NCBI GenBank assembly: GCA_030668875.1
Contig: DAOVER010000035.1
Coordinates: forward strand, 1 to 30,512
From: Candidatus Heimdallarchaeota archaeon
Lineage (GTDB): Archaea; Asgardarchaeota; Heimdallarchaeia; Heimdallarchaeales; Heimdallarchaeaceae
Length of the DNA: 30,512 nt
Direction of reading: 5' to 3'
Shown here: positions 8,838 to 30,512 of the stretch, one piece after another
How the letters are laid out: the number at the start of each line of letters is the position of its first letter
Numbering within the stretch: the stretch's first letter is position 1
The notes under the pieces: model-generated
What the model saw: only the letters and a program-made list of their open reading frames with translations
What the model was told of the DNA's origin: nothing
The model's database searches: none
Made by a program: the position numbers and the translations under genes

Positions 8838-9587
8838 TTAATGAAATATCTGAGTTATTGCTTTATCTAATTCCGAATCTTTTGGGCTACCATCAAATGC
8901 TATTACTTTGTTTATACAGACAATTCTGTGGCAATATGCTCTTAGAATTTCTATATTATGTCCTACGGTGATGATGGTGATTTTGTGTGTATAATTGAGA
9001 TACTCTAAAAGTTCCATAATATCCTCTGTCATTCGGAAATCTAAAGCGGAAGTGAATTCATCTAACAATAATACTTCAGCTTCAGCTGCTAATGCTTGCG
9101 CGATGAGGACCCTCTGTTGTTGCCCTCCACTAAGGTGCCCAATGGGTCTTTCAGCAGCATGTTCCATATCTACTAATCGTAAGGCATCCATAGCTTTTTG
9201 TTTGTCAATTTTTCTAATCCTGCTTACTAATCCTGCTTTTGCATATCTTCCCATCTCCACTACATCTTTTACTAGTGCTGGGAAATTTTTGTCTATAGTA
9301 GTAATTTGTGGGACATATCCTATTCGAAACCTAGTATGAACTGGAACAGTATCAATTATCTCTTCCCCATACAGTGTCATTCTTCCTGCAATTGGTTGAA
9401 TCAAACCTATCATTGTTTTTAGTAGTGTTGTTTTTCCACTTCCGTTTGGACCACAAATTCCAATAAAATCTCCTTTTTTTACATCTAAGTTTATCTCATA
9501 TAAAGCAGCAAAGTCACCATAAACGACACTTATATCCTTCATACAAGCAACTATATCGCTATCAGGTGATATATCATCGACCGTCAC
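8838..9587 (-). CDS. Zn/Mn ABC transporter ATP-binding subunit (ZnuC/MntA-like)
   Basis: Walker A GPNGSGKT, IGYVPQ, LSGGQQQRV, LLLDE and H-loop VGHN. It overlaps the permease stop by 4 nt. Confidence 0.93.
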   Translation of the reverse strand: MTVDDISPDSDIVACMKDISVVYGDFAALYEINLDVKKGDFIGICGPNGSGKTTLLKTMIGLIQPIAGRMTLYGEEIIDTVPVHTRFRIGYVPQITTIDKNFPALVKDVVEMGRYAKAGLVSRIRKIDKQKAMDALRLVDMEHAAERPIGHLSGGQQQRVLIAQALAAEAEVLLLDEFTSALDFRMTEDIMELLEYLNYTHKITIITVGHNIEILRAYCHRIVCINKVIAFDGSPKDSELDKAITQIFH

Positions 9588-10606
9588 TCTTCACCCTCCA
9601 TTTCATGTTTGTGTTTAGAAGGAGTACTTTTTTCCTTCAAATCTTTCTTATAAATAATCAACTCTCCCTCACTATGCTTGTGTGGAATTTCTCTGGCTAT
9701 ACAGCTTTCCTCTAAACAGAATTTTCTACCATCGATGGATTTCGCGCAATATTCACAATTCTCAATATCCTGTCCTGTTCCAGATTTCCTTCTCTTCGGA
9801 GACACAATAAATGATAAAGCAAAAATTAATGTTGCAACTCCAACAATAGTTGATCCAGAAGGTAGATCCCAGATAAATGAGAAAAATAATCCTAGAAAAG
9901 CTGAAATTACACCAAATAGTGCTGACAACAAAAGCATTTTGTTTAGCTTAAATGTCCATTGATAAGCTGCTGCAGCAGGTGTAATTATCATTGCAAAAAC
10001 TAAAATTGCTCCTATTGCTTTCAATGAAACATCAATTGTAATTGCTATAAGTATTAGAAAGAGATAATTAATAAATCTTATTGGAATACCTGCTACTGAA
10101 GCCATTTCTTCATTAAATGTTATCAAGTATAATTCCTTCTTTAGAGCAATAATGATGACTAAAACCCCTACAGCCATACTAATAAGTAAAATGAAATTTT
10201 CCCAAGAAATGAGGAGAATATCTCCAAATAATATTGAAGTTACGTCTGTTGAGTAAAATGGCATTAATCCTATGAAGAGTATAGCTAGAGCCATGAAACT
10301 GGTAAATACTACTCCAATAATTACTTCATCTTTCATAACCTTCTTCTCATTAACATAACCAATACCTACAGAAGCAGTGACTCCAAAAATCATAACTGTA
10401 ATAAGTGGGTCTATACCTAAGAGTATCCCCAATGCAGCTCCGGCAAAAGCTGAATGGGCTATTGCTTCACCAAGAAAAACCATGCCTTTTAACAGAACAA
10501 AAACCCCGACAATCCCCCCTAAAACTCCAATGATTACAGCTGTAAACAAAGCTTTAATCATTAACGGTGTTGCTAAAGAGTATATGAAATCAAGAATCGA
10601 TGCCAT
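9584..10606 (-). CDS. Zn/Mn ABC transporter permease (ZnuB/MntB-like) with a Cys/His-rich C-terminal tail
   Basis: GEAIAHSAFAG, ILFGDIL, GAILVFAMIITPAAAA and PSGSTIV motifs. The tail reads CEYC...CLEESC...HKH...HKH. Confidence 0.92.
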   Translation of the reverse strand: MASILDFIYSLATPLMIKALFTAVIIGVLGGIVGVFVLLKGMVFLGEAIAHSAFAGAALGILLGIDPLITVMIFGVTASVGIGYVNEKKVMKDEVIIGVVFTSFMALAILFIGLMPFYSTDVTSILFGDILLISWENFILLISMAVGVLVIIIALKKELYLITFNEEMASVAGIPIRFINYLFLILIAITIDVSLKAIGAILVFAMIITPAAAAYQWTFKLNKMLLLSALFGVISAFLGLFFSFIWDLPSGSTIVGVATLIFALSFIVSPKRRKSGTGQDIENCEYCAKSIDGRKFCLEESCIAREIPHKHSEGELIIYKKDLKEKSTPSKHKHEMEGEE

Positions 10607-10686
10607 GTACTAGAAGAGTTAAGTGAAATATAAAATGATTTTGGGTATGTACAAAAATTAATATAAAGAAGAATCAGTTTTTTTAC

Positions 10687-11757
10687 TTGATGTGTTCTAA
10701 AACGCAGAAAATAGTTGTTCTCATTTTTGCTATGTTTCTCTTTCTATCACCATATTCAGTTATGGCTAGTACGTCTTATAAGCCAGTTATAGTTTCTAAC
10801 ATAAATGAAACTAGTGGAGTAATTAGCGTTGTGACGACATTATCAATAATAGCCGATTGGGCTACTCAAGTGGGTGATACACTGTTCACTCCAGCTTCTG
10901 TTGTTACAGGTTCTGAGGATCCTCATACTTATTCCTTGACTTCAAGTGAGATTCAGATGATAGGTGAAGCAGATTTGTTTGTAAGACTGGGTTTACCTGG
11001 AATTGAACCTTGGGTTGAGAATATTTTAGACGCATTTCCTTCTCTGAATGTTCTTACACTAGCCTCAGAGGAGATGATGGAAATTGATCCTGTTTCAGGA
11101 TATCTAAATGCACATGTGTGGATGAGTCCTATAATTGCTAAAAACTTTGTTTCAAACATAACAGATAGTATTATACAACTGGACATTGCAAATAGAGAAC
11201 AATATGAAACAAACAGAGACAATTATCTATCTGATTTAGATGAGTTGATATTTGATATCGAAGATTATTATTTCAATAAGACCAACGGCTTAAAGGTAGT
11301 CGTACAACATCCTTCATTTTTCTACTTGTTAAATTTGCTTGGTGTTGAAAGAGTAGGAATAATTGAAGAGCATGAAGGTTCAGAACCTTCAGCACAACAC
11401 ATTCAAGAAATTATTAACATTATGATAGAACAAAATGTGTCCACTATTATCACCCAACCACAAATTGAGGAACAATTAGTTATACAGATTGCTAGAGATA
11501 CAAATTCTAAAATTGCTATATTAACACCAATGTTGCTCGATGATGAAGATGCCAATTATATCCAAATGATAATAGATGATATTAACGCGCTGTTGTCCCC
11601 AGAAGATATCGAAGACAATCAATGGATTGTAGCATCTTTAGCTATCGGTGGTGGATTTTTTGTGGGTAGTATTCTACTGCTTGTCTATCTACGTTTTAAG
11701 GGGAATATTTTCAAATTCAAGAAAGAAAAAATTAAACCAAAAACCAATAGGGAATGA
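10687..11757 (+). CDS. Zn/Mn ABC transporter substrate-binding protein (ZnuA/TroA-like) with a C-terminal TM anchor
   Basis: Signal peptide, metal-ligand motifs DPHTY, NAHVW, QHPSF and EPS, and a hydrophobic C-terminal helix followed by basic residues. Divergent from the permease/ATPase pair. Confidence 0.9.
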   Translation: MMCSKTQKIVVLIFAMFLFLSPYSVMASTSYKPVIVSNINETSGVISVVTTLSIIADWATQVGDTLFTPASVVTGSEDPHTYSLTSSEIQMIGEADLFVRLGLPGIEPWVENILDAFPSLNVLTLASEEMMEIDPVSGYLNAHVWMSPIIAKNFVSNITDSIIQLDIANREQYETNRDNYLSDLDELIFDIEDYYFNKTNGLKVVVQHPSFFYLLNLLGVERVGIIEEHEGSEPSAQHIQEIINIMIEQNVSTIITQPQIEEQLVIQIARDTNSKIAILTPMLLDDEDANYIQMIIDDINALLSPEDIEDNQWIVASLAIGGGFFVGSILLLVYLRFKGNIFKFKKEKIKPKTNRE

Positions 11758-13812: not shown

Positions 13813-14469
13813 TCATACAACCTGTACCCATCTAGGTTCAAATTGATTTTTAGCAAACTTGATTCTAACAAGCTGTTGAGGACCAGTGGGTTCGTCTGTT
13901 CTTTTTGTTTCAGCTAGAACATCAACTATTGTATGGAGCGTCTTTTCTGTTTGTTCGTCTATAACTCCGGAGTCTAATAAGAGTAAGATAGCTTGATTCC
14001 TTTCTCTACTCCTTGCTGCTAATGTTTGAAGGAAGTTCAAAACCTGCATTGGTTGATTGTATAATGTTAGGAGAGCAAGTTGATCAAACACAATTCGTAG
14101 CTTCGACGCTTTTTTAGATTGCTCGTTCAAGGTTACAGAGAGAGTGAGTAAATCGTTTGCATTGTCTAAAAAGAATGTTTTAGGAGGTTTATCCTTTGGA
14201 ATTGATCTATAAGAAATAGCATCTATGATGTTAAGCTGACCTTTCTCAAGGCGTTTTTCATTCTTTTCATCTCGTTTTTTCAATTCCTCAAGATAATCAG
14301 TAGCTGAGTGTGCGAATAGGACTGCAATAACATTTTCTCCTTTCTGAAAACCATCCTCTACAAATCGGAATGCCATCTCTTCTTTTGCTGTTCCTGATTC
14401 ACCTATCATTAAGATTACTGAACTTTCAACGCTATCAACCAAAATATCAATACTAGTTCTTACTGACAT
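13813..14469 (-). CDS. KaiC/RAD55-like RecA-superfamily ATPase domain protein with degenerate motifs
   Basis: Walker A-like GESGTAKE, Walker B-like RIVFDQL, and C-terminal IVDVLAE...LVRIKFAK, following the single-domain KaiC layout. Confidence 0.75.
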   Translation of the reverse strand: MSVRTSIDILVDSVESSVILMIGESGTAKEEMAFRFVEDGFQKGENVIAVLFAHSATDYLEELKKRDEKNEKRLEKGQLNIIDAISYRSIPKDKPPKTFFLDNANDLLTLSVTLNEQSKKASKLRIVFDQLALLTLYNQPMQVLNFLQTLAARSRERNQAILLLLDSGVIDEQTEKTLHTIVDVLAETKRTDEPTGPQQLVRIKFAKNQFEPRWVQVV

Positions 14470-21857: not shown

Positions 21858-22589
21858 TTGCTAATGGATTCAAGTAACAAAAAGAAACTACTCATTTGTC
21901 GAGAAACTGACATTATTTGTACGGGTGGAGTGGTGTTCATTGGCGATGGAGCAGTTGGAAAGACTCATACAGCTTTGAATTTGGCTAGTTATAGGAAAGG
22001 ATCATTCCATACTGTTGATTGTGCTAACTTATCCAAATCCGTTAATTTGGAATTCGATTATTTCATCCTATATTCAAATATTGAAAAATATAAAGTAACT
22101 ATAAGCTCACAATTATTCATTATGCCTGGACAGAAAGGGAAAGCTGAAGTAGGCGAAGGACTAGCCTTTGAAGATGCTGTTGATATGTATTTCAACGTAA
22201 GAAGCATCAATGATGTAATAGCTTTAATCTTAACTTACAGTTTAGCTGAAATTAAAACCTTCCAGAATCTGGAATATTGGCTAAACAGAGCAATTGATCA
22301 TGAACTAATATCAGATTATACAAATGTCATCTTGCTTGGAACACATCTTGATTATGTTATTTCTTCAGATGTAACTGATAAGATGATTAGTGATGGAGAA
22401 GAGTTTGTAAGACAGAGAATAAATGATAAACTAGGCATAGAAATGAGTACAAATCGAATAAGTTCAGTGAAAATTTCTAATTTAAATAGAACAGGAATTG
22501 ATGAACTACAAGATAGAGTGTCCAATGCCTTCTTCAGAGCATTTGAGATAGAAAAAGTTGTAAATAATAGCTTAAGTCAGAATAATTGA
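21858..22589 (+). CDS. Divergent Ras-superfamily (Rab/Rho-like) small GTPase
   Basis: G1 VVFIGDGAVGKT (nt 21942 onward), switch I SVNLEF, G3-like FIMPGQ, LTYSL...TFQNLEYWL, G4-like LGTHLD and G5-like ISNLNRTGIDEL. Start is TTG 21858 or ATG 21861. Confidence 0.8.
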   Translation: MLMDSSNKKKLLICRETDIICTGGVVFIGDGAVGKTHTALNLASYRKGSFHTVDCANLSKSVNLEFDYFILYSNIEKYKVTISSQLFIMPGQKGKAEVGEGLAFEDAVDMYFNVRSINDVIALILTYSLAEIKTFQNLEYWLNRAIDHELISDYTNVILLGTHLDYVISSDVTDKMISDGEEFVRQRINDKLGIEMSTNRISSVKISNLNRTGIDELQDRVSNAFFRAFEIEKVVNNSLSQNN

Positions 22590-22726
22590 AGCTTGCAAGA
22601 GCAATAATCTTTATTATTTGCGCAACTTATTGTTGAATATAATAAGAGCACAAAATCTTAACTGTCATGGTTTAGGAAATCTTGCGATATTAGAAGAACA
22701 AAAAATCAGGCCTAGAAGGGGATATC

Positions 22727-25700
22727 ATGTATAAAAATAAATCAAAACTATTTTCAATTTTTATTGTTACATTATTCATCAGTTCACTAATCTATTTTGA
22801 ACCTTCATTAAATGACGAAAAATTAACCGATACAGTTTTTCCTAATAAACCAATTCTTCCAGACACTGATAATGAAACAGATGAAAATATAAATAACCAA
22901 GATGATAGTGAAAACGCTCCAATAAAGAAGACAGAAGAAATTCCAGGGGACTACGAAACTTTTGCATTTTTCAGTGGTGGAACGGGATATATCTATGGAG
23001 CTCCAAGGGTCGGTGAATCGCTTATATTAGACCCTGCGGATGAAGATCCTCTACATCGTCGTAATGTCATTGAATGGGTATCTTATGATGATATTAAAGA
23101 TGATGGAACATTAGCAAAAGAGCTATATTGGAGAGCATTAAGTGTTGAACCTATAACTTGGCCTAATGATACTAACTGGTTTTATCTACGAGAAAGGGGA
23201 TACCCAAATGAACCATCAAAAATGTATAGTCCAACTTTTACAGAAGAGTTTGAGATAAGTGGAAGAGTACATTTCCTCTCCTATCTTGAGTTAAATAATG
23301 GTGCTACTTTTTCTGAAACAATAGATATTGGTTATAGATTAAGTCTTTATCTTTTTAATCCTGCTGACCCAAACAATCCTACATTAATTACAAGCAATAC
23401 GATCATCGAATCAACATCCTCAATGACTGTTGGGCAAAGGACTTTTTCAGCAGATATAGTTTCCCCTGTAACAATACCTGTAGGGTATAGATTAAGAATG
23501 GATATTGAGGCTAGATTTAGTACAGTACCAGTATCGGGTTCCTTTCTTCAATATACAGGGTGGTATTGGGGAGGTGGTGGAACTAACACTTGGACAATCA
23601 CTGATGGTATTTATTCTAACATTTATACGATTAATAATATTTCTAGGATGGCTGGTCTACAGCTTTACATGCGATCGAAAACATACCCCGAAATACAAAT
23701 ATTCAATGCTGTAAATGAGACTGTTTATTCTTCAGCAAGAGATATAACAATAGATGTAACGGATGGTTCAACGAGTAGCTTCAGATGGAATGGAGATAGT
23801 GTATGGACGCCAATTTACGATAGTATTCTGTCTCCATTACTTACAGAACATGGGTGGAATACTTTAGAAGTGAAAGCAAGTGATCCAATTTACAATAACA
23901 CGATAGTAGAACTTTATCAGTTTGGTTATGATGAATCTCCAGTAAATGTTGTTTTAGATAATGCAATCAATACTTCAATTATTCCCAGAAATTATGATCT
24001 ACAGTTTAGCGTCTATAATATTACTTCTGCAACGTTTGAGTGGGATAATAGTGGTTCTCCGACGTCGTTCATATCACCCTATAATATTACCGCAGAAAAT
24101 TATGAGGGTTTACATAATTTAACGATTATCACAATTGATTTCTACACAACGGAGTCATATTATTACGAGTTCACTTTTGAATCTTTACCACCAACAATCC
24201 TGTTAGACTCACCAGATAACAATACACTACAATCTCCAGGAAAAAATATTTACATACAGGTTAACGATTCATCAGGTATTGATATTGTGACTTATCACTG
24301 GGATGGTGATATAGAAGAGGTAATGACATTTCTAGGTGGACACATATATAGAACAAACTTACCCACCGCAGGAGGTTGGCATCAACTATATGTCACAGCA
24401 AATGATACTTATGGAAATCAAATCTCGTCACATTATACTTTCTTTACAGATCCTACCATACTTAATGTTGAATTAACAAATATGATAGATGATTCATATT
24501 ATATGGGAGGTAATGATGTTAATGTAACAATCACGTCTTCCAATGATACTATAAAATACAAATGGGATAATGGTGTCTGGAAAGATAAATCTGACGCGGA
24601 ATGGGATGGGGCCCTACTTAAACTTAAGGACGCTGAAGGGTTACCTTCAACTCTTGGGGTTCACATTTTGAAAATTCGGACTGGTACTCTTTTACATGTT
24701 GAAGAAACTTTCACTTTTACATTCACAATAGATCAACAAGCACCAGAATATGATTCTTCTGTGTTAGATTATAGTAATTTAAGATATCTGGGGGAGGAAA
24801 CACTAACATTTACTGTTACAGACAATTTTACTCTTTCTGCTGAAATTCTACTAAAAATCTCCATTGATGGAGGTTTTAATCAATCTCTATTCTTTCCGTT
24901 TATTTTACCACTATTTTCTTTCTTTGATGGTAATCATAGTATTGTGATATATGTTTGGGATATTGCTGGAAATGTAAATGTGACTACAATATATGTTATT
25001 GTTGATAACACTGCTCCTGACATAGATTACCTTATCCCAGACTTAGTTAATTATATTCATGTAGACGGTAATAGATATGTAAAGGCTGATGCTCTAGTTG
25101 ATGTCACATTAACAGACGACGACACTATTCTTTTCAGCTATTATTCAATTAATGGAACAGCATTTACTTCATTCGTTTCCGATTTTAATCTAGGGTTTCT
25201 TGAAGGTTATCTTGAAATAACTATACGTGCAAATGATAGCTTAGGCAATATATATGATTTATATTTTTATTTAATTCTTGATAATAGTCCACCAACGTTG
25301 GATCTCATATTTCCATTTAATTACATCTCGGAAATAAATGATTTAACCCCCTTACAGTTCAATACACAAGACCTTTCTGATAAAACTATCAATTCAGTTG
25401 AATATGAATGGGATGTTTTTCCAGGATTCACTGCAAATGCATTTCCTGATATAAATGGTGACTTCGAATTCAAGCTGCTCTCATTTATACAAGATTCTTA
25501 TGTATCAGGTAGTACTGCACAATTGACATTTTATCTTGAAGATATAGTTGGAAATATTGCTATAATTATGTATAATTTCACTGTTGATTATACGGCACCA
25601 ATTGCTGCATTCTATATTTATAATGAAACAGTCGTATACGAAGATATTAGTCTATTTTATTATGTAGAAGGAAATACTTCCATATTTTATAATAATACTG

Positions 25701-27580
25701 AAAATGATGATTTGATAAAACTAGAATATTACTGGGATGGAAATATATCAGAAGGATCAATTGTGACACTTATAAATGGTACAAACCCATTTCCGTGGTT
25801 CATAAATGTACCTCCAATTGACGGTGAACATAATTTAACAGTCAAGCTCTATGATGATGCTGGAGAAAAACTAAGTCAAAATATCAGAACTGAAACATAT
25901 TTCTTAAAAGTTGATGACATCTTGATTAGCCCAATATCTCCATCAGATTTATCAGATGAGTACCATACAACAATCTTGTATAAAGACAGCTTCAATTTCA
26001 GAATAAATGTTACAGATATTTTAGATGGACAACCTCTAGATAATGTTGATATTACCTATAACTATGATTCGACATACAATCTCAGTATTGAAATTGTTCA
26101 GATTGATAGTATAACTTATGATTTTACAATAACAGCATTCAACGTAACTAATGGCTTAGAAACAGCTATTGAATTTTATATATTTCAATTTGCAGACAAA
26201 AAGGAAATGAGAGTTATATATCTTACAGTAGATACTAGAGAAGGGAATTTATTTGTCTTACAAGGAGGATATAATAGTCTCTACTACAATGACATAGTTA
26301 ATTTCACACTGCAACTGAATGATCATTTGAATATCTCTGCTCAAGAAATTCTAAGTATAACAATTAATGGTACAGAAGTACCCTACCTCTATTTTTCAGA
26401 AAATGGAACTGCGAGAATATCCCTCTTTCTACCTGATTTTGTTGATAGTAAAGGGAACTATACCTTTGAAATTTACGCGGAGTCTTCAGAATATTATGAT
26501 ACTTTTATTGATTCATCTGTTATTTTGATAGAAGTGAAACCGATGCTTGTTTTATTAGACGTATGGGTATTAAATTCAACAATTCTAGAAGGTACTTCCG
26601 TAATAATTTATGCTAAATTGACCTTAGAAGATGGCACTCCCATAGTAGGTGCAGAGATTTATTTTATTATATATATTTACCTAAAAACTGATACAGAACT
26701 TCCATCTACAGTTGTTCGGCTATCTTTTGCAGATTATAATGAAAGTGTTACTAACAGTAGCTTCACTGGATCTGATGGTATAGCCCTTTTGTCTTATACA
26801 CTAAACTCCAGTATATCTTCAATCGAGATAGAAGCTAGTTATCTAGGGGATGACATTCGGGATCAAACACAATTTAGATTTGATGGCATAGTAATTACGT
26901 TTCCACCTCCTCAAGCTGAAGAGCTTCCTGTATGGCTCTTAGGTTTGATAATAGGTGGAAGTATTTTAATCGCAGGAATTATCTCATTCATCATATACAA
27001 AGCTACACGACCTAAACCTTTTGAAGAATTAATGAAGAAAATTACTGATGAGGAAATTGTTTTGAATTATTCCATTCTCTCTCCAGGTATTATGTTGTCA
27101 ATATTTGATCAACGTAAAGGTCCGATTCCCTTGGTAACTGATCATTCATTGAGTATTGGTCGATATATAGGAAGGATGCAGATTGGTATAGAAAATTTTC
27201 TACTTAAAATTGCTGATCAAGCTTATTCCAGCTTAGGTTTTGAGGAACATACCGATGAGAGAAGAGTTGGATCAATAGTACTACCTAGTGAGAAAATGGT
27301 CGGTTTCTTACAAGGGTTACAGTTAAAGAATCCTCAAGCTCGAGGAGGTTTTGAGAATCTTTCTCTAATTATTCTTGCTGATCGAGAGTACGGAAACTTA
27401 CTTCTTAACTACCAAGAGTATCTTTATCCAAAAATAGACGAATTGGATGTTGCACTCAAAGGCAAAGATTCGTTGAAGAAAGTAGAAATGTTGATAAAAG
27501 AAATCCGTAAAGAATCTGTTGTAATTATCCTTGCTGCACAAAAAGTTGAAAAAGCTCAAGAGAACGGAAGCAGCTCTTAA
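22727..27580 (+). CDS. 1617-aa single-pass surface protein: signal/anchor, tandem Ig-like domains, TM helix and cytoplasmic longin/uDENN-like domain
   Basis: Hydrophobic N-terminus. Repeating (Y/F)xWD/N, G.H.L.(I/V)...D and D..(A/P)P.I units with many NxS/T sequons. TM helix WLLGLIIGGSILIAGIISFIIY from about nt 26933, followed by a basic residue. The C-terminal domain has SIFDQRKGPIP and QARGGFENLSLIILA. Confidence 0.8.
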   Translation: MYKNKSKLFSIFIVTLFISSLIYFEPSLNDEKLTDTVFPNKPILPDTDNETDENINNQDDSENAPIKKTEEIPGDYETFAFFSGGTGYIYGAPRVGESLILDPADEDPLHRRNVIEWVSYDDIKDDGTLAKELYWRALSVEPITWPNDTNWFYLRERGYPNEPSKMYSPTFTEEFEISGRVHFLSYLELNNGATFSETIDIGYRLSLYLFNPADPNNPTLITSNTIIESTSSMTVGQRTFSADIVSPVTIPVGYRLRMDIEARFSTVPVSGSFLQYTGWYWGGGGTNTWTITDGIYSNIYTINNISRMAGLQLYMRSKTYPEIQIFNAVNETVYSSARDITIDVTDGSTSSFRWNGDSVWTPIYDSILSPLLTEHGWNTLEVKASDPIYNNTIVELYQFGYDESPVNVVLDNAINTSIIPRNYDLQFSVYNITSATFEWDNSGSPTSFISPYNITAENYEGLHNLTIITIDFYTTESYYYEFTFESLPPTILLDSPDNNTLQSPGKNIYIQVNDSSGIDIVTYHWDGDIEEVMTFLGGHIYRTNLPTAGGWHQLYVTANDTYGNQISSHYTFFTDPTILNVELTNMIDDSYYMGGNDVNVTITSSNDTIKYKWDNGVWKDKSDAEWDGALLKLKDAEGLPSTLGVHILKIRTGTLLHVEETFTFTFTIDQQAPEYDSSVLDYSNLRYLGEETLTFTVTDNFTLSAEILLKISIDGGFNQSLFFPFILPLFSFFDGNHSIVIYVWDIAGNVNVTTIYVIVDNTAPDIDYLIPDLVNYIHVDGNRYVKADALVDVTLTDDDTILFSYYSINGTAFTSFVSDFNLGFLEGYLEITIRANDSLGNIYDLYFYLILDNSPPTLDLIFPFNYISEINDLTPLQFNTQDLSDKTINSVEYEWDVFPGFTANAFPDINGDFEFKLLSFIQDSYVSGSTAQLTFYLEDIVGNIAIIMYNFTVDYTAPIAAFYIYNETVVYEDISLFYYVEGNTSIFYNNTENDDLIKLEYYWDGNISEGSIVTLINGTNPFPWFINVPPIDGEHNLTVKLYDDAGEKLSQNIRTETYFLKVDDILISPISPSDLSDEYHTTILYKDSFNFRINVTDILDGQPLDNVDITYNYDSTYNLSIEIVQIDSITYDFTITAFNVTNGLETAIEFYIFQFADKKEMRVIYLTVDTREGNLFVLQGGYNSLYYNDIVNFTLQLNDHLNISAQEILSITINGTEVPYLYFSENGTARISLFLPDFVDSKGNYTFEIYAESSEYYDTFIDSSVILIEVKPMLVLLDVWVLNSTILEGTSVIIYAKLTLEDGTPIVGAEIYFIIYIYLKTDTELPSTVVRLSFADYNESVTNSSFTGSDGIALLSYTLNSSISSIEIEASYLGDDIRDQTQFRFDGIVITFPPPQAEELPVWLLGLIIGGSILIAGIISFIIYKATRPKPFEELMKKITDEEIVLNYSILSPGIMLSIFDQRKGPIPLVTDHSLSIGRYIGRMQIGIENFLLKIADQAYSSLGFEEHTDERRVGSIVLPSEKMVGFLQGLQLKNPQARGGFENLSLIILADREYGNLLLNYQEYLYPKIDELDVALKGKDSLKKVEMLIKEIRKESVVIILAAQKVEKAQENGSSS
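23690..25920 (+). repeat. Protein-level tandem Ig-like (Big-type) repeats in the ectodomain
   Basis: Recurring strands FRWNG, FEWDN, YHWDG, YKWDN, YEWDV and YYWDG paired with GWNTLEV, GLHNLTI, GWHQLYV, GVHILKI, GNHSIVI and GEHNLTV. Boundaries are approximate. Confidence 0.65.
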
Positions 27581-27678
27581 GCAATTTTCTTTTTCTCAAG
27601 CCTTTATCGATAAATTGATAATTAAATAGACCGTTATATTCATAAAGAGGTCAAAGACGCTTTTAGGGGGCGCTATAT

Positions 27679-29592
27679 ATGTCATACTTGTTCGATGAAA
27701 TTTACGGTAAAAACGAAGAAGCTCCTGCAATAGAAGATAAGATTCTACTTATGGGTCTCCAAGCTGCAGGGAAAACTGCAATAAAGGATGTGGTTTTCTT
27801 TAACAAATCTCCAGAAGATATGGAAGATTATATGGCAACAGTTCACTATCAACGTCATTTCATTGACGAAGAAAAAAAAAGTATGGTTATTGATTCCGGT
27901 GGGCAAGAGAGTTATTGGAACGAAGCTGTAACGCATTTTCGACATCTTGTATTCTCAAATGTCAAATTGCTCGTCTGGATTGTTGATGTTACTCATCCTG
28001 AGATGTTTGAAGAATCGGAAAGACGATTCAGTTTTACAATTCGACAATATAAAAAAGAAAACCCCAATGGAAGAATAACTGTATTGTGCCACAAAGTCGA
28101 TCTTGTACAACCAGAGAGAATGGTTGTTATTCATCAACACATACGTGAGTCATTTAATGATCCAAAATATGAAATCGATTTTGAAAATACCAGCATCTAT
28201 TACAGAGAAAGTTTAAAGGAATTAATTTTTACGATTATGGCTGAAGCTGGAATAGATACTAAACGATTTGAGCTAATTTCCAACTTAGGTCAGAAAGTGG
28301 AGGAAAGTGATGAGTTCCAAAGCTATCTCATGGAACATCAAGAAGACCCAAGAATTGAACAACTTCTAGATTTTCTCAAACCTGATGCTGAAATTACTTT
28401 ACCCACTTTTGGTAACTTGGATTTACAATTCGACTTAACAGATTATGGTATTATAGAAATTGTTCTTATTGATAAGGATACATTTTCTCCTATAATAGGT
28501 GCTTCATCCAAAACAGATGTTACAACACAAAATTCAATGGATTATCTTATTGCACTTCACGACTTCAAACGTTATGTGAAGGAAAAAAGTCAAGAAATTG
28601 ACCCCACAGGTACTATTGTTAAATCTGCTGATGAGAAAGTTCATGGAATGGTTTTCAACCTTGCAAAAAATTTCTTGCTTGTAACTTCTTTCTCTGAAAT
28701 AACAAAAGAAAGGAAGAAGATGTTTTTTGATCTTATACTCAAGTTTGCAAAAGCAACTACTGATTCTGATGAAGCTGCTAAACCTGAACCAGTCCCTGTT
28801 CCTTTAGTACCTCAAGTTCCATCAGTTCCCGTTACCACAGAAACAGTTACTACTGAACCTGAATCATTCCCTGAAATTGTTGATGAACCAATAGTTATCG
28901 TTGAAGAAACAGTGGAAGCTCCTCAAATAGAGATAATGAAAACATCGTTAGTTGTAGAAGAAACAGATATCGTTGAACCCGAAATCATATTGCCACCTTC
29001 ACCTGCTTCAGTTGAACTTGTTACAGAGGAACAAAAAGAAGAGATTGAACAAGTTACACCAGAACCAATCGAAATAGAGCATGTAGAAGAACTTACTGAG
29101 CTACCAGAAACCCATGTAGAATCAAAACCCATAATTGTTGAAGAAACTCCAGAAGTTTTAGCTAAGTCAGCACCTCAAGTACCTGTCCCAACTGTTCCAG
29201 AGTCCACTGCTGTGCCAGACGTTCCAGATACCAAAGTAACAGAAGTACCTCCAGAACAACAAATCGTACCCGAATTTGTTGAGAAGATGGTTATAGAGTC
29301 AATCCCTGAACAAACCGAACAAATTGAAACAGCTGTTGAAGACAAGATTGAACATATTCCCGATACAACTGAACCTATTGCCACATTAAATGGTATAGGA
29401 GATTCAAGTGCAATAAATTTCAGTGCAGATGATATCTCAAGTTTTGCTAACTTCTTAGTTCAGAAGAAAGAAACAATACTTGAAGGCATATCATCAGATG
29501 ACATTAAAGGTATGTCTAACTTTCTTACAAAAGGATCAACTGCAGAAGTAGAAGAAATAAATGAAGAAAGAGAAGAACAAACTACAGAGTAG
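27679..29592 (+). CDS. Rag/Gtr1-like GTPase with a roadblock-like C-terminal domain and a long acidic Pro/Glu/Val/Thr-rich tail
   Basis: KILLMGLQAAGKTAIKDVVF (cf. Gtr1 KVLLMG.SGSGKSS..SIIF), ATV, DSGGQE, WIVDV, HKVDLV and TSIY. EIVLIDKDTFSPII resembles RagA EVLLFERATFLVI. Confidence 0.85.
   Translation: MSYLFDEIYGKNEEAPAIEDKILLMGLQAAGKTAIKDVVFFNKSPEDMEDYMATVHYQRHFIDEEKKSMVIDSGGQESYWNEAVTHFRHLVFSNVKLLVWIVDVTHPEMFEESERRFSFTIRQYKKENPNGRITVLCHKVDLVQPERMVVIHQHIRESFNDPKYEIDFENTSIYYRESLKELIFTIMAEAGIDTKRFELISNLGQKVEESDEFQSYLMEHQEDPRIEQLLDFLKPDAEITLPTFGNLDLQFDLTDYGIIEIVLIDKDTFSPIIGASSKTDVTTQNSMDYLIALHDFKRYVKEKSQEIDPTGTIVKSADEKVHGMVFNLAKNFLLVTSFSEITKERKKMFFDLILKFAKATTDSDEAAKPEPVPVPLVPQVPSVPVTTETVTTEPESFPEIVDEPIVIVEETVEAPQIEIMKTSLVVEETDIVEPEIILPPSPASVELVTEEQKEEIEQVTPEPIEIEHVEELTELPETHVESKPIIVEETPEVLAKSAPQVPVPTVPESTAVPDVPDTKVTEVPPEQQIVPEFVEKMVIESIPEQTEQIETAVEDKIEHIPDTTEPIATLNGIGDSSAINFSADDISSFANFLVQKKETILEGISSDDIKGMSNFLTKGSTAEVEEINEEREEQTTE
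28760..29400 (+). repeat. Low-complexity P/E/V/T-rich coding segment
   Basis: About 210 aa dominated by E, P, V, T and I (PEPVPVP, VPQVPSVP, VPTVPES, VPDVPD), with almost no aromatic residues. Confidence 0.8.
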
Positions 29593-29657
29593 TTTCTTTT
29601 AATCAACAATTGTATTTATTGCTTTTTCGTACAACTTCTTGAATATACCATGTTGAT

Positions 29658-30512
29658 TTAAACTGGACGACTGTCTCCATATCTTCTATATTCTAGTTGC
29701 GAATCTAGGAAGATTGGTATCTCTCGCATCTCTGTAACACATTCGTGGATAGGATAAATCTCAATGGATGTTGTACCAAATCCTTTCTGAACTTTAATAC
29801 CTCTTTCAAGTTGTTCAGAGTTTTCAACTGCGACATCAAGCATTGATTTCTGTAGATTTCTCCCACAAACATCACATCTAAAACTGATGTTCCTATCAAC
29901 TCTTCTTTCAACAACCTCGTCTTTTGGAATGCCATTTTTTGCTAAATAGTTAATGAGTGTGTCTCTCATCTTGATTTTAGCTCTTCCAAGAAGTTCGTCA
30001 GGTTGGAATAGTTGTTGCATTTCAACTGCTAAGGTATTGAAATATTCTTTTTCATTTACTTGGTCAGCATCTGGAGGAAAAACTGTTGTTAATACTAAAT
30101 CTTCGCTTATTTCTTTCATATAGACTCTGTTTTCTTCAAAAGAGAATATAACATGATCTAAAACTAATGTTGGTGAAAACATTTTTGCAAGGTCATTTTT
30201 CAATTTAATGAAATTATATCCAGCATACCTTTCAGGTTGAGAATATAACATTAAACCTTGAGCTGTTGATAGTGCGATAAAAACTAAATCCTGTTGTTTG
30301 AATGTTTCTTTGATTTTAACTGATTTAGAGTCATCTTTCGGATAAACATAGGCCAATACTTGTTGCATTGCATCCCATATTGTTTCTTCAAAAATTGATG
30401 TCCCAATAATTTCGGCATTTGGAAAATTCTCAATTTCGAAAATATCTTTAATTGATTGTAAAACAGGCTCTCGTTTATTTGGAGGTACTACATCCATCTT
30501 ATGTGCAAATAC
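29658..30512 (-). CDS. Second Rag/Gtr-like GTPase (C-terminal part; N-terminus lies beyond the window) with a roadblock domain and a Cys/His C-terminal domain
   Basis: The frame stays open to the window edge and reads VFAHKMDVVP (G4 HKxD), so ATG 30497 is internal. It also has TSIFEETIWDA (cf. Gtr1 TSIWDESLYKA), the roadblock pattern FIALSTAQGLMLYS...LVLTTVF and C-terminal CDVC...HEC. Confidence 0.8.
   Translation of the reverse strand, partial: VFAHKMDVVPPNKREPVLQSIKDIFEIENFPNAEIIGTSIFEETIWDAMQQVLAYVYPKDDSKSVKIKETFKQQDLVFIALSTAQGLMLYSQPERYAGYNFIKLKNDLAKMFSPTLVLDHVIFSFEENRVYMKEISEDLVLTTVFPPDADQVNEKEYFNTLAVEMQQLFQPDELLGRAKIKMRDTLINYLAKNGIPKDEVVERRVDRNISFRCDVCGRNLQKSMLDVAVENSEQLERGIKVQKGFGTTSIEIYPIHECVTEMREIPIFLDSQLEYRRYGDSRPV

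Follow-up and report, generated by a model that had tools for sequence, protein, structure and literature searches.

In eukaryotes, Rag and Arf GTPases are regulated by longin-domain GTPase-activating proteins (GAPs), namely FLCN-FNIP (Lst7-Lst4 in yeast), NPRL2-NPRL3 of GATOR1, and C9orf72-SMCR8; these have a fold in common, are soluble proteins recruited to lysosomes, and act as heterodimers of two different longins which carry DENN or other C-terminal domains. The Rags themselves also form heterodimers (RagA/B-RagC/D; Gtr1-Gtr2), each partner joining a G domain with an HKxD motif to a C-terminal roadblock domain, and Rag-like proteins have been solved from Lokiarchaeota (8yl2, 8zla, 9m28). 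In bacteria, the small GTPase MglA is regulated by MglB, a soluble roadblock homodimer of the roadblock/longin superfamily. For Asgard archaea, Rag-like GTPases, GTPase-roadblock and longin-GTPase fusions as well as FLCN/NPRL2-like longins have already been published (PMC12290439, PMC10933270). PMC12290439 does not decide between Arf-related and Rag GTPases as partners of Asgard longins, and according to Tran et al. (PMC10933270) the layout of Asgard genomes does not generally pair small GTPases with their regulators. The present analysis concerns four adjacent genes, termed A to D, on contig DAOVER010000035.1 of Candidatus Heimdallarchaeota archaeon (assembly GCA_030668875.1); the window, that is, the whole stretch of DNA analysed, is the entire 30.5-kb contig (30,512 nucleotides) of a 3.23 Mb genome that is 92% complete.

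Genes A to D constitute a conserved gene module of the Heimdall group, with gene A as a member in this family. Gene B encodes a giant surface protein with a single transmembrane (TM) helix and a cytoplasmic longin tail, C and D encode Rag/Gtr1-like GTPases, and A encodes a divergent Ras-like GTPase (coordinates of all features are given in Table 1). The tail of B is proposed to regulate the co-encoded Rag-like GTPases from its tether in the membrane, most likely as a GAP which employs an arginine (R1539) and a glycine-proline (GP) loop and acts on a C-D pair joined through roadblock domains, a proposal that we consider about evenly poised between holding and failing.

The fold of the tail was modelled with AlphaFold2 (AF2) from an alignment of 43 tail sequences (A1), which gave a pLDDT of 93.8 and a pTM of 0.90; the succession of strands (E) and helices (H) in the model (E27-34, E38-46, H61-76, E86-92, E97-107, E115-125, then further helices) is that of a longin domain. 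A Foldseek search with the model returned as top match the longin domain of a roadblock-longin protein from Lokiarchaeota (8yqg, E 1.7e-5), followed by FLCN (8dhb_J, 24% identity), Lst4, FNIP2 and NPRL2/3. VIA comparison likewise gave the highest Z scores for 8yqg (12.4), C9orf72 (12.0), Lst4 (11.6), FLCN (11.3, with a root-mean-square deviation of 2.6 over 132 residues) and SMCR8 (10.5), with TRAPP, SNARE, adaptor and roadblock proteins (Z 6-8) ranking below these longins of GAP complexes. The neighbours of the tail in the ESM Atlas were Asgard GTPase-longin fusions, a Heimdall cluster partly annotated as Pfam Folliculin, and the eukaryotic FLCN, SMCR8 and C9orf72 clusters.

Within this fold, conservation is concentrated in two places. 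In a second alignment (A2) of 25 very diverse tail sequences, fusion proteins included, G-P and R-G are the sole invariant columns. The GP motif together with the arginine is reported to be specific to GAP-type longins (FLCN, NPRL2, SMCR8, C9orf72) and to occur in a class of Asgard longins, and the position of GP in the tail of B agrees with the loop and start of the second strand given there for GAP longins (PMC12290439). Of the A1 relatives, 18 of 43 match Pfam Folliculin (PF11704) weakly (best E 1.8e-4), every time over the segment with the ARG loop; the only match of the window's tail to that family covers tail residues 103-153 and with them R1539, and two farther relatives exceed the threshold (L094 with 28.3 bits, L085 with 24.0 bits). 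Taken together, model and motifs support the assignment of the tail to the FLCN/SMCR8/NPRL2-type (GAP-type) longins with GP motif and invariant arginine, and R1539 is likely equivalent to the catalytic arginine of FLCN.

The genomic context ties this tail to Rag-like genes. It was found in 17 of 23 genomes of the same genus, often in several copies and always at the end of open reading frames (ORFs) of 1450-1640 aa; wherever the contig extended far enough (9 of 9 loci in the genus), A was followed by one to three tandem copies of B, then C and a convergent D. The whole module recurs in two other genera of this family as well as in a second family (G064 and G152 have it complete, G119 complete but rearranged), and orthologs of C and D bear adjacent NCBI locus tags in 6 records. 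The rearranged locus (L106, G119:C52:1-16000) reads D, B, A and then C, with C shifted to the opposite flank of the cluster and in divergent orientation. In the distant Heimdall-group families f5 and f21, triads are formed by a giant B, a long Rag (564-739 aa) and a short Rag (300-319 aa); a tree of the Rag-like proteins did not resolve whether C corresponds to the long and D to the short Rag of family f5. A survey of ten Heimdall-group genomes placed a Rag-like gene no more than 3 kb from about 10 of 36 strong tail genes, against a chance expectation of about 0.5, given that the 38 Mb surveyed hold 72 Rag-like genes (some 1.5% per gene), a count that stands for enrichment rather than for a formal test because the genomes surveyed are kin. 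Near B paralogs elsewhere in the genus, 3 of 7 loci adjoin a D-like gene for a GTPase consisting of the G domain only and forming a clade with D (SH-aLRT 99), which hints at the D type as the constant partner.

Phyletic distribution and gene fusions point the same way. In a sample of 150 genomes from the phylum, the strong tails and the strongest matches to the D-type Rag (E 1e-37 or better) fall into the same four families (f1, f5, f6 and f21), while family f13 has weaker D-type matches (1e-29 to 1e-34) in 5 of 25 genomes. The next-nearest relatives of the tail come from outside the four families; they are 470-487-aa cytoplasmic proteins that combine such a longin with a Gtr1_RagA G domain (E 1e-23 to 1e-25) in one chain and provide a gene-fusion argument for direct partnership between the longin type of B and Rag G domains. 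Conserved synteny and the existence of fusions thus place the linkage far beyond chance. One protein from the same order as the window genome (L093:229-1305) combines a Ras-family G domain (Pfam Ras, E 2.5e-35) with a C-terminal longin of the B-tail type, so the GP/Arg longin class is not bound to Rag G domains alone. In other Asgard families, small proteins of 236-246 aa (L088:2037-2747 and L089:2030-2770) fuse a GP/Arg longin to an ArsR/TrmB-like winged-helix domain; it is possible that the class is linked directly to transcription by way of these fusions.

The part of B outside the cell behaves quite differently from the tail. Compared with the closest relative (G021), the ectodomain shows only 25-63% identity per 100 residues, whereas A, the tail of B, C and D are 87-96% identical, and along B the identity rises to 98% precisely at the TM helix. 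When the window's B was compared with five relatives (L039, L049, L040, L037 and L041), separate 100-residue blocks of the ectodomain turned out to be common to separate relatives, for instance residues 500-900 being 52-65% identical to L040 and residues 100-400 being 55-59% identical to L039; the outer part of B is therefore mosaic and fast-changing, the inner part constant, a pattern which suggests recombination or cassette exchange limited to the outer part. In distant Heimdall-group families, B-type tails terminate proteins of ~170 to ~10,400 aa whose ectodomains are unrelated. Such a tail ends open frames of 8,800-10,400 aa at G097:C193:39679-40221, G133:C10:124873-125421 and G148:C87:16350-16889, which means that the cytoplasmic module of B is borne by some of the largest proteins of these genomes. 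Some tandem copies of B contain a single in-frame TAA, and a tail fragment beside a Rag pair contains two in-frame TAG codons (G097:C101:14866-15111; G001:C13:97032-97589; G004:C97); these may be decaying copies or assembly errors.

C is readily recognized as a Rag-like protein (Pfam Gtr1_RagA, E 1.9e-26, 93.4 bits; in the Protein Data Bank (PDB), Gtr1 at E 1.2e-14, RagA at 2.7e-13 and RagC at 4.9e-9), with 124 homologs of 350-690 aa, most of them labelled Heimdallarchaeota. Its C-terminal domain had no Pfam match; the AF2 block of residues 205-361 is modelled with a pLDDT of ~58-91 (83-91 in the core, 290-350), and the top 37 Foldseek matches of the C model are full-length RagA/C, Gtr1/2 and LokiRagO, aligned across both domains. 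Beyond the roadblock domain, C continues into a disordered tail rich in E/V/P, ~270 aa in all and also without a Pfam match. Near its end lies a twin motif, short and amphipathic-looking, whose strict pattern is present in 30 of 107 homologs; it could be a tethered peptide which binds the longin tail, D, or the membrane.

The end of the contig cuts off the first 128 residues of D; D was therefore judged by a complete ortholog of 412 aa (P0119), to which it is identical at 274 of 284 positions (96%). The ortholog matches Pfam Gtr1_RagA with E 4.3e-33 and 115.1 bits (the truncated D reaches 21.3 against a cut-off of 22) and, in the PDB, Gtr1 (E 6e-23), RagA (7e-23) and RagC (6e-11); the G4 motif of D is HKMD. 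With P-loop, DxxGQ and HKxD complete in both, C and D are plausible active switches. A division of the two into a RagA-like and a RagC-like member was considered and rejected, both being nearer to RagA/Gtr1 than to RagC by their PDB E-values. The C-terminal half of D probably contains a roadblock domain, as judged from its sequence, and ends in a Cys/His domain in which C341, C344, H384 and C386 (CxxC...HxC) are invariant in 29 homologs and EYRRY is nearly so; Pfam had no match for the roadblock region or for the Cys/His domain of D, and a feature search of the Protein Atlas with the C-terminus yielded a best score of 0.80, to be taken as a lead only. By analogy to the eukaryotic Rags, C and D may pair through their roadblock domains. 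A complex prediction (C 1-365, D ortholog 1-335, 2 GTP), in which the tail was the only partner scored, returned 0.00 ("no answer") and carries no weight either way.

An initial annotation, made from the DNA alone, had proposed four genes at these positions encoding a divergent Rab/Rho-like GTPase, a single-pass surface protein with a cytoplasmic longin-like domain, and two Rag-like GTPase-roadblock proteins. The ORF list has them where they were placed, and Pfam and the models bear out the gene content; the cytoplasmic longin-like domain is upheld by the model, the Foldseek and VIA matches, the GP motif and the invariant arginine, and the reading of C as a Rag-like GTPase-roadblock protein by the modelled topology and the full-length alignments. 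For D, described in the same terms, the Rag G domain stands on the Pfam match of the ortholog, and the roadblock domain is a sequence-based prediction. The initial annotation's reading of the locus as a possible outside-in circuit of ectodomain, membrane-tethered GAP and Rag pair is supported in part, by gene content, longin type and linkage to Rag genes; a tail-GTPase interface, GAP activity, a C-D dimer and the outside-in direction are predictions.

Gene A encodes a divergent GTPase. It scores above the cut-off for Pfam Ras (E 2.2e-6; 27.8 bits, cut-off 21.6) and only weakly against the PDB (Rab11/Cdc42 at E ~0.1). The P-loop (GDGAVGKT) is intact, MPGQ replaces DxxGQ in switch II, and THLD replaces NKxD at G4; since seven orthologs keep the P-loop, (M/L)PGQ and THxD, these deviations are non-canonical yet conserved, and A is possibly an atypical switch. 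Translation probably starts at the ATG at 21864, which matches the starts of the orthologs, rather than at the upstream TTG. A adjoins B in families f1 and f6.

In the mechanism that we propose, C and D would pair through their roadblock domains in the manner of eukaryotic Rags, and the longin tail of B, probably as a dimer, would bind the G-domain face of the pair at the plasma membrane. There it would control which nucleotide C and D carry, most likely by acting as a GAP that inserts R1539, and a Rag-type switch would in this way be coupled to what happens at the ectodomain (ligand, clustering, or contact). Gene content, folds, motifs, synteny, fusions and hypervariability of the ectodomain are observed here, and binding, GAP chemistry, the direction of signalling and its output are inferred; "nutrient signalling" could be applied to the module only by analogy. 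A more far-reaching version, in which B is a genuine transmembrane receptor and its folliculin-type tail serves as the GAP of an archaeal Rag heterodimer, is rather doubtful.

Several observations weigh against the tail being a GAP of C and D. The tail of the window itself reaches only 11.9 bits against Pfam Folliculin, far below the cut-off of 23.3, and its GAP role is a prediction. Sequence searches of the PDB (phmmer with the tail, the A1 and A2 profiles, and phmmer with L094) did not retrieve FLCN, SMCR8 or NPRL2, for which reason the residue-level match between R1539 and the arginine finger of FLCN is putative. Unlike the eukaryotic GAP complexes, B offers a single longin: the protein ends after the longin helices, with neither a DENN nor another C-terminal domain, and a search of the 92%-complete genome with the A2 profile revealed no second longin of the B-tail type. 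On the side of linkage, the kinship of the genomes surveyed overstates the independence of the tail-Rag count, about 70% of the giant tail genes in distant genomes have no Rag neighbour, and the same is true for 4 of the 7 loci with B paralogs in this genus. It is also reported that dimers of longin and roadblock domains are mostly guanine nucleotide exchange factors (GEFs) or platforms and less often GAPs (PMC10933270). The tail might accordingly do the work of Ragulator or Mon1-Ccz1, as a tether or scaffold at the membrane or as a GEF platform; it would bring the lipid-free Rag-like pair to the plasma membrane or stimulate nucleotide exchange, with the arginine and GP serving structure or binding. 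We deem this unlikely, though it has real points in its favour: C and D have no hydrophobic segment in a hydropathy scan and may thus need a tether, the roadblock proteins MglB and LAMTOR are among the fold matches of the tail (Z 6-7), and in 8yqg, the closest relative of solved structure, GP is present and the arginine absent. Against it, the arginine and GP are the only columns to remain invariant among very divergent tails, in a pattern reported to be GAP-longin-specific, and the best fold matches are the longins of GAP complexes, not TRAPP, Mon1 or LAMTOR.

The direction of control could also be the reverse, with the Rag-like GTPases using the longin tail as an effector site through which placement, clustering, turnover or secretion of B, then an adhesin or S-layer-like cargo, is governed. 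The hypervariable mosaic ectodomain and the tandem duplication of B, both typical of adhesins and diversifying surface proteins, would fit well, as would the attachment of the tail to proteins of very different length with unrelated ectodomains and the fact that longin-GTPase pairs of eukaryotes mostly serve membrane traffic; however, no trafficking machinery is encoded within the cluster, the locus implies no internal membranes, and the conserved motifs of catalytic type sit on the receptor side, which leaves such inside-out handling distinctly unlikely. It is quite improbable that the tail acts on the Ras-like GTPase A instead, the Rag-like pair having a separate role. A lies directly upstream of B and has stayed next to it in f1 and f6 even after rearrangement, the Ras-longin fusion of L093 comes from the same order, and the best shape match in the Atlas is a cluster of Arf/Ras GTPase-longin fusions; yet A is absent from the triads of f5 and f21 and from the loci of B paralogs, where Rag-like genes do occur, it lacks the aspartate of DxxG, and most of the fusion relatives carry Rag G domains. 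That the four genes are mere neighbours with no functional link would agree with the lack of Rag neighbours around most of the distant tail genes and with the report that Asgard GTPase genes do not as a rule share operons with regulators (Tran et al., PMC10933270), but it is very hard to reconcile with synteny that spans three genera plus a second family and holds through a changed gene order, and with recurring adjacency in distant families, fusion proteins and coinciding phyletic patterns; we regard it as highly improbable.

Table 1. Features of the four-gene module (positions in the 30,512-nucleotide window)
Feature	Position	Strand	Remarks
Gene A, ORF as listed	21858-22589	+	TTG start at 21858
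Gene A, likely extent	21864..22589	+	divergent Ras-like small GTPase, ~241 aa
Gene B	22727..27580	+	1617-aa single-pass surface protein
B, N-terminal hydrophobic segment, residues 7-25	22745..22801	+	hydropathy scan; signal peptide or anchor
B, ectodomain, ~1370 aa	22802..26923	+	beta-rich; 40 N-x-S/T sequons
B, Big_13 Ig-like domain, the sole one in the ectodomain	25688-25882	+	Pfam E 4.4e-8
B, TM helix, residues 1400-1425	26924..27001	+	hydropathy scan; basic residues directly after it (positive-inside)
B, cytoplasmic tail, residues 1428-1617, 190 aa	27008..27577	+	predicted FLCN/SMCR8/NPRL2-type longin
B, GP motif, G1465-P1466	27119..27124	+	context FDQxxGPIP, start of strand beta2; invariant in A1 and A2
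B, R1539, ARGG motif	27341..27343	+	beta4-beta5 loop (from model); invariant in A1 and A2; candidate arginine finger
Gene C	27679..29592	+	637-aa Rag/Gtr1-like GTPase
C, G domain	27727..28263	+	GLQAAGKT, DSGGQ, HKVD; VIA Z 17.8 to LokiRagO and Gtr1
C, roadblock-type C-terminal domain	28291..28761	+	AF2 topology H-E-E-H-E-E-E-H
C, disordered linker, ~200 aa	28774..29373	+	rich in E/V/P; from composition
C, C-terminal twin motif	29410..29526	+	DDIxxFAxFL ... IKxMSxFL; aligned in 20 sampled homologs
Gene D	29658..30512	-	last 284 residues of a ~412-aa Rag/Gtr1-like GTPase; 5' end open
D, putative roadblock domain	29907..30332	-	phmmer alignment to RagA reaches ortholog residue 235; strand/helix pattern read from sequence
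D, C-terminal Cys/His domain, ~80 aa	29661..29906	-	CDVC 29865-29876, HEC 29739-29747; putative zinc-binding

Between 21858 and 30512 the four genes are the only sizeable ORFs, and a scan of their products against NCBIfam gave sub-threshold matches only. Inspected by eye, the spacers contain A/T boxes of TATA-like appearance as well as runs of T, neither of which settles how the genes are grouped into operons. Upstream of A lie genes for a P-type ATPase and for FAD/Fe-S oxidoreductases, which are unrelated and not kept beside the module in relatives; the contig further carries ZnuA/ABC-3 metal-uptake genes (8838-11757) and a gene for a KaiC-like ATPase (13813-14469), all ordinary and without relation to the module. 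Close homologs of the window's proteins come from metagenome-assembled genomes labelled Heimdallarchaeaceae or Heimdallarchaeota. DNA of the locus is present in four sequencing runs, all marine sediment metagenomes from one study, and no RNA run was among the runs containing it.

Compared with the eukaryotic GAP complexes introduced above, the tail of B has the same nearest structural neighbours and shares the GP before beta2, the invariant arginine in the ARG loop, the genetic tie to Rag GTPases and the position on the cytoplasmic face of a membrane, but its longin is built into the polypeptide chain of a giant transmembrane surface protein. C and D resemble the Rag heterodimers and the Rag-like proteins of Lokiarchaeota in joining an HKxD G domain to a C-terminal roadblock domain (putative in D) and, like the former, are two paralogs, encoded here side by side; they differ from the eukaryotic Rags by the disordered tail and twin motif of C, the Cys/His domain of D and their common proximity to RagA/Gtr1. 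The cluster encodes no counterpart of Ragulator, TOR or SLC38A9. MglA-MglB offers a prokaryotic parallel for a small GTPase under the control of a roadblock/longin-superfamily protein, a control which for B is proposed; unlike B, MglB has no GP/Arg longin signature, no fusion to a receptor and no target of the Rag type. Among Asgard proteins, the 'FLCN/SMCR8-type' GP-motif longins (PMC12290439) belong to the same class as the tail and have both of its motifs, the fusions L085-L092 represent the published longin-Rag architecture, and C represents the published GTPase-roadblock architecture (PMC10933270; Liu et al. 10.1101/2020.10.19.343400). What sets the tail of B apart from the longins in the available portions of these texts is its transmembrane and ectodomain context and its synteny with Rag genes. 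The literature searched on Asgard longins, Rags and folliculin (the supplement of PMC12290439 lying outside its scope) contained no account in which this longin type forms the tail of a transmembrane surface protein or is syntenic with Rag genes, and literature on the solved LokiRag structures added none; within these bounds the initial annotation, which knew of no description of the arrangement, was right. The comparison of synteny among Asgard genomes that it had called for did not give the first of its refuting outcomes, genes unlinked in related genomes: the linkage holds in each of the nine same-genus loci on long enough contigs, in a further two genera and in another family.

The locus thereby offers a concrete pairing, that of a folliculin-type longin with Rag-like GTPases, drawn from synteny, from its retention through rearrangement, from fusions and from phyletic co-occurrence; through this pairing, an archaeal origin of the Rag-FLCN/GATOR switch becomes directly testable. 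A longin serving as the cytoplasmic tail of a giant, fast-diversifying surface protein amounts to a receptor-like wiring that is not known among the regulators of eukaryotic Rags. If the more far-reaching version given above is true, the partnership of Rags and longin GAPs, on the cytoplasmic face of a membrane that borders a non-cytoplasmic space, would predate eukaryotes. The surface of the archaeal cell would then correspond in topology to the lysosomal membrane, at which eukaryotic Rags sense the nutrients of the lumen, and the variety of ectodomains would amount to a family of interchangeable sensors on one GTPase switch.

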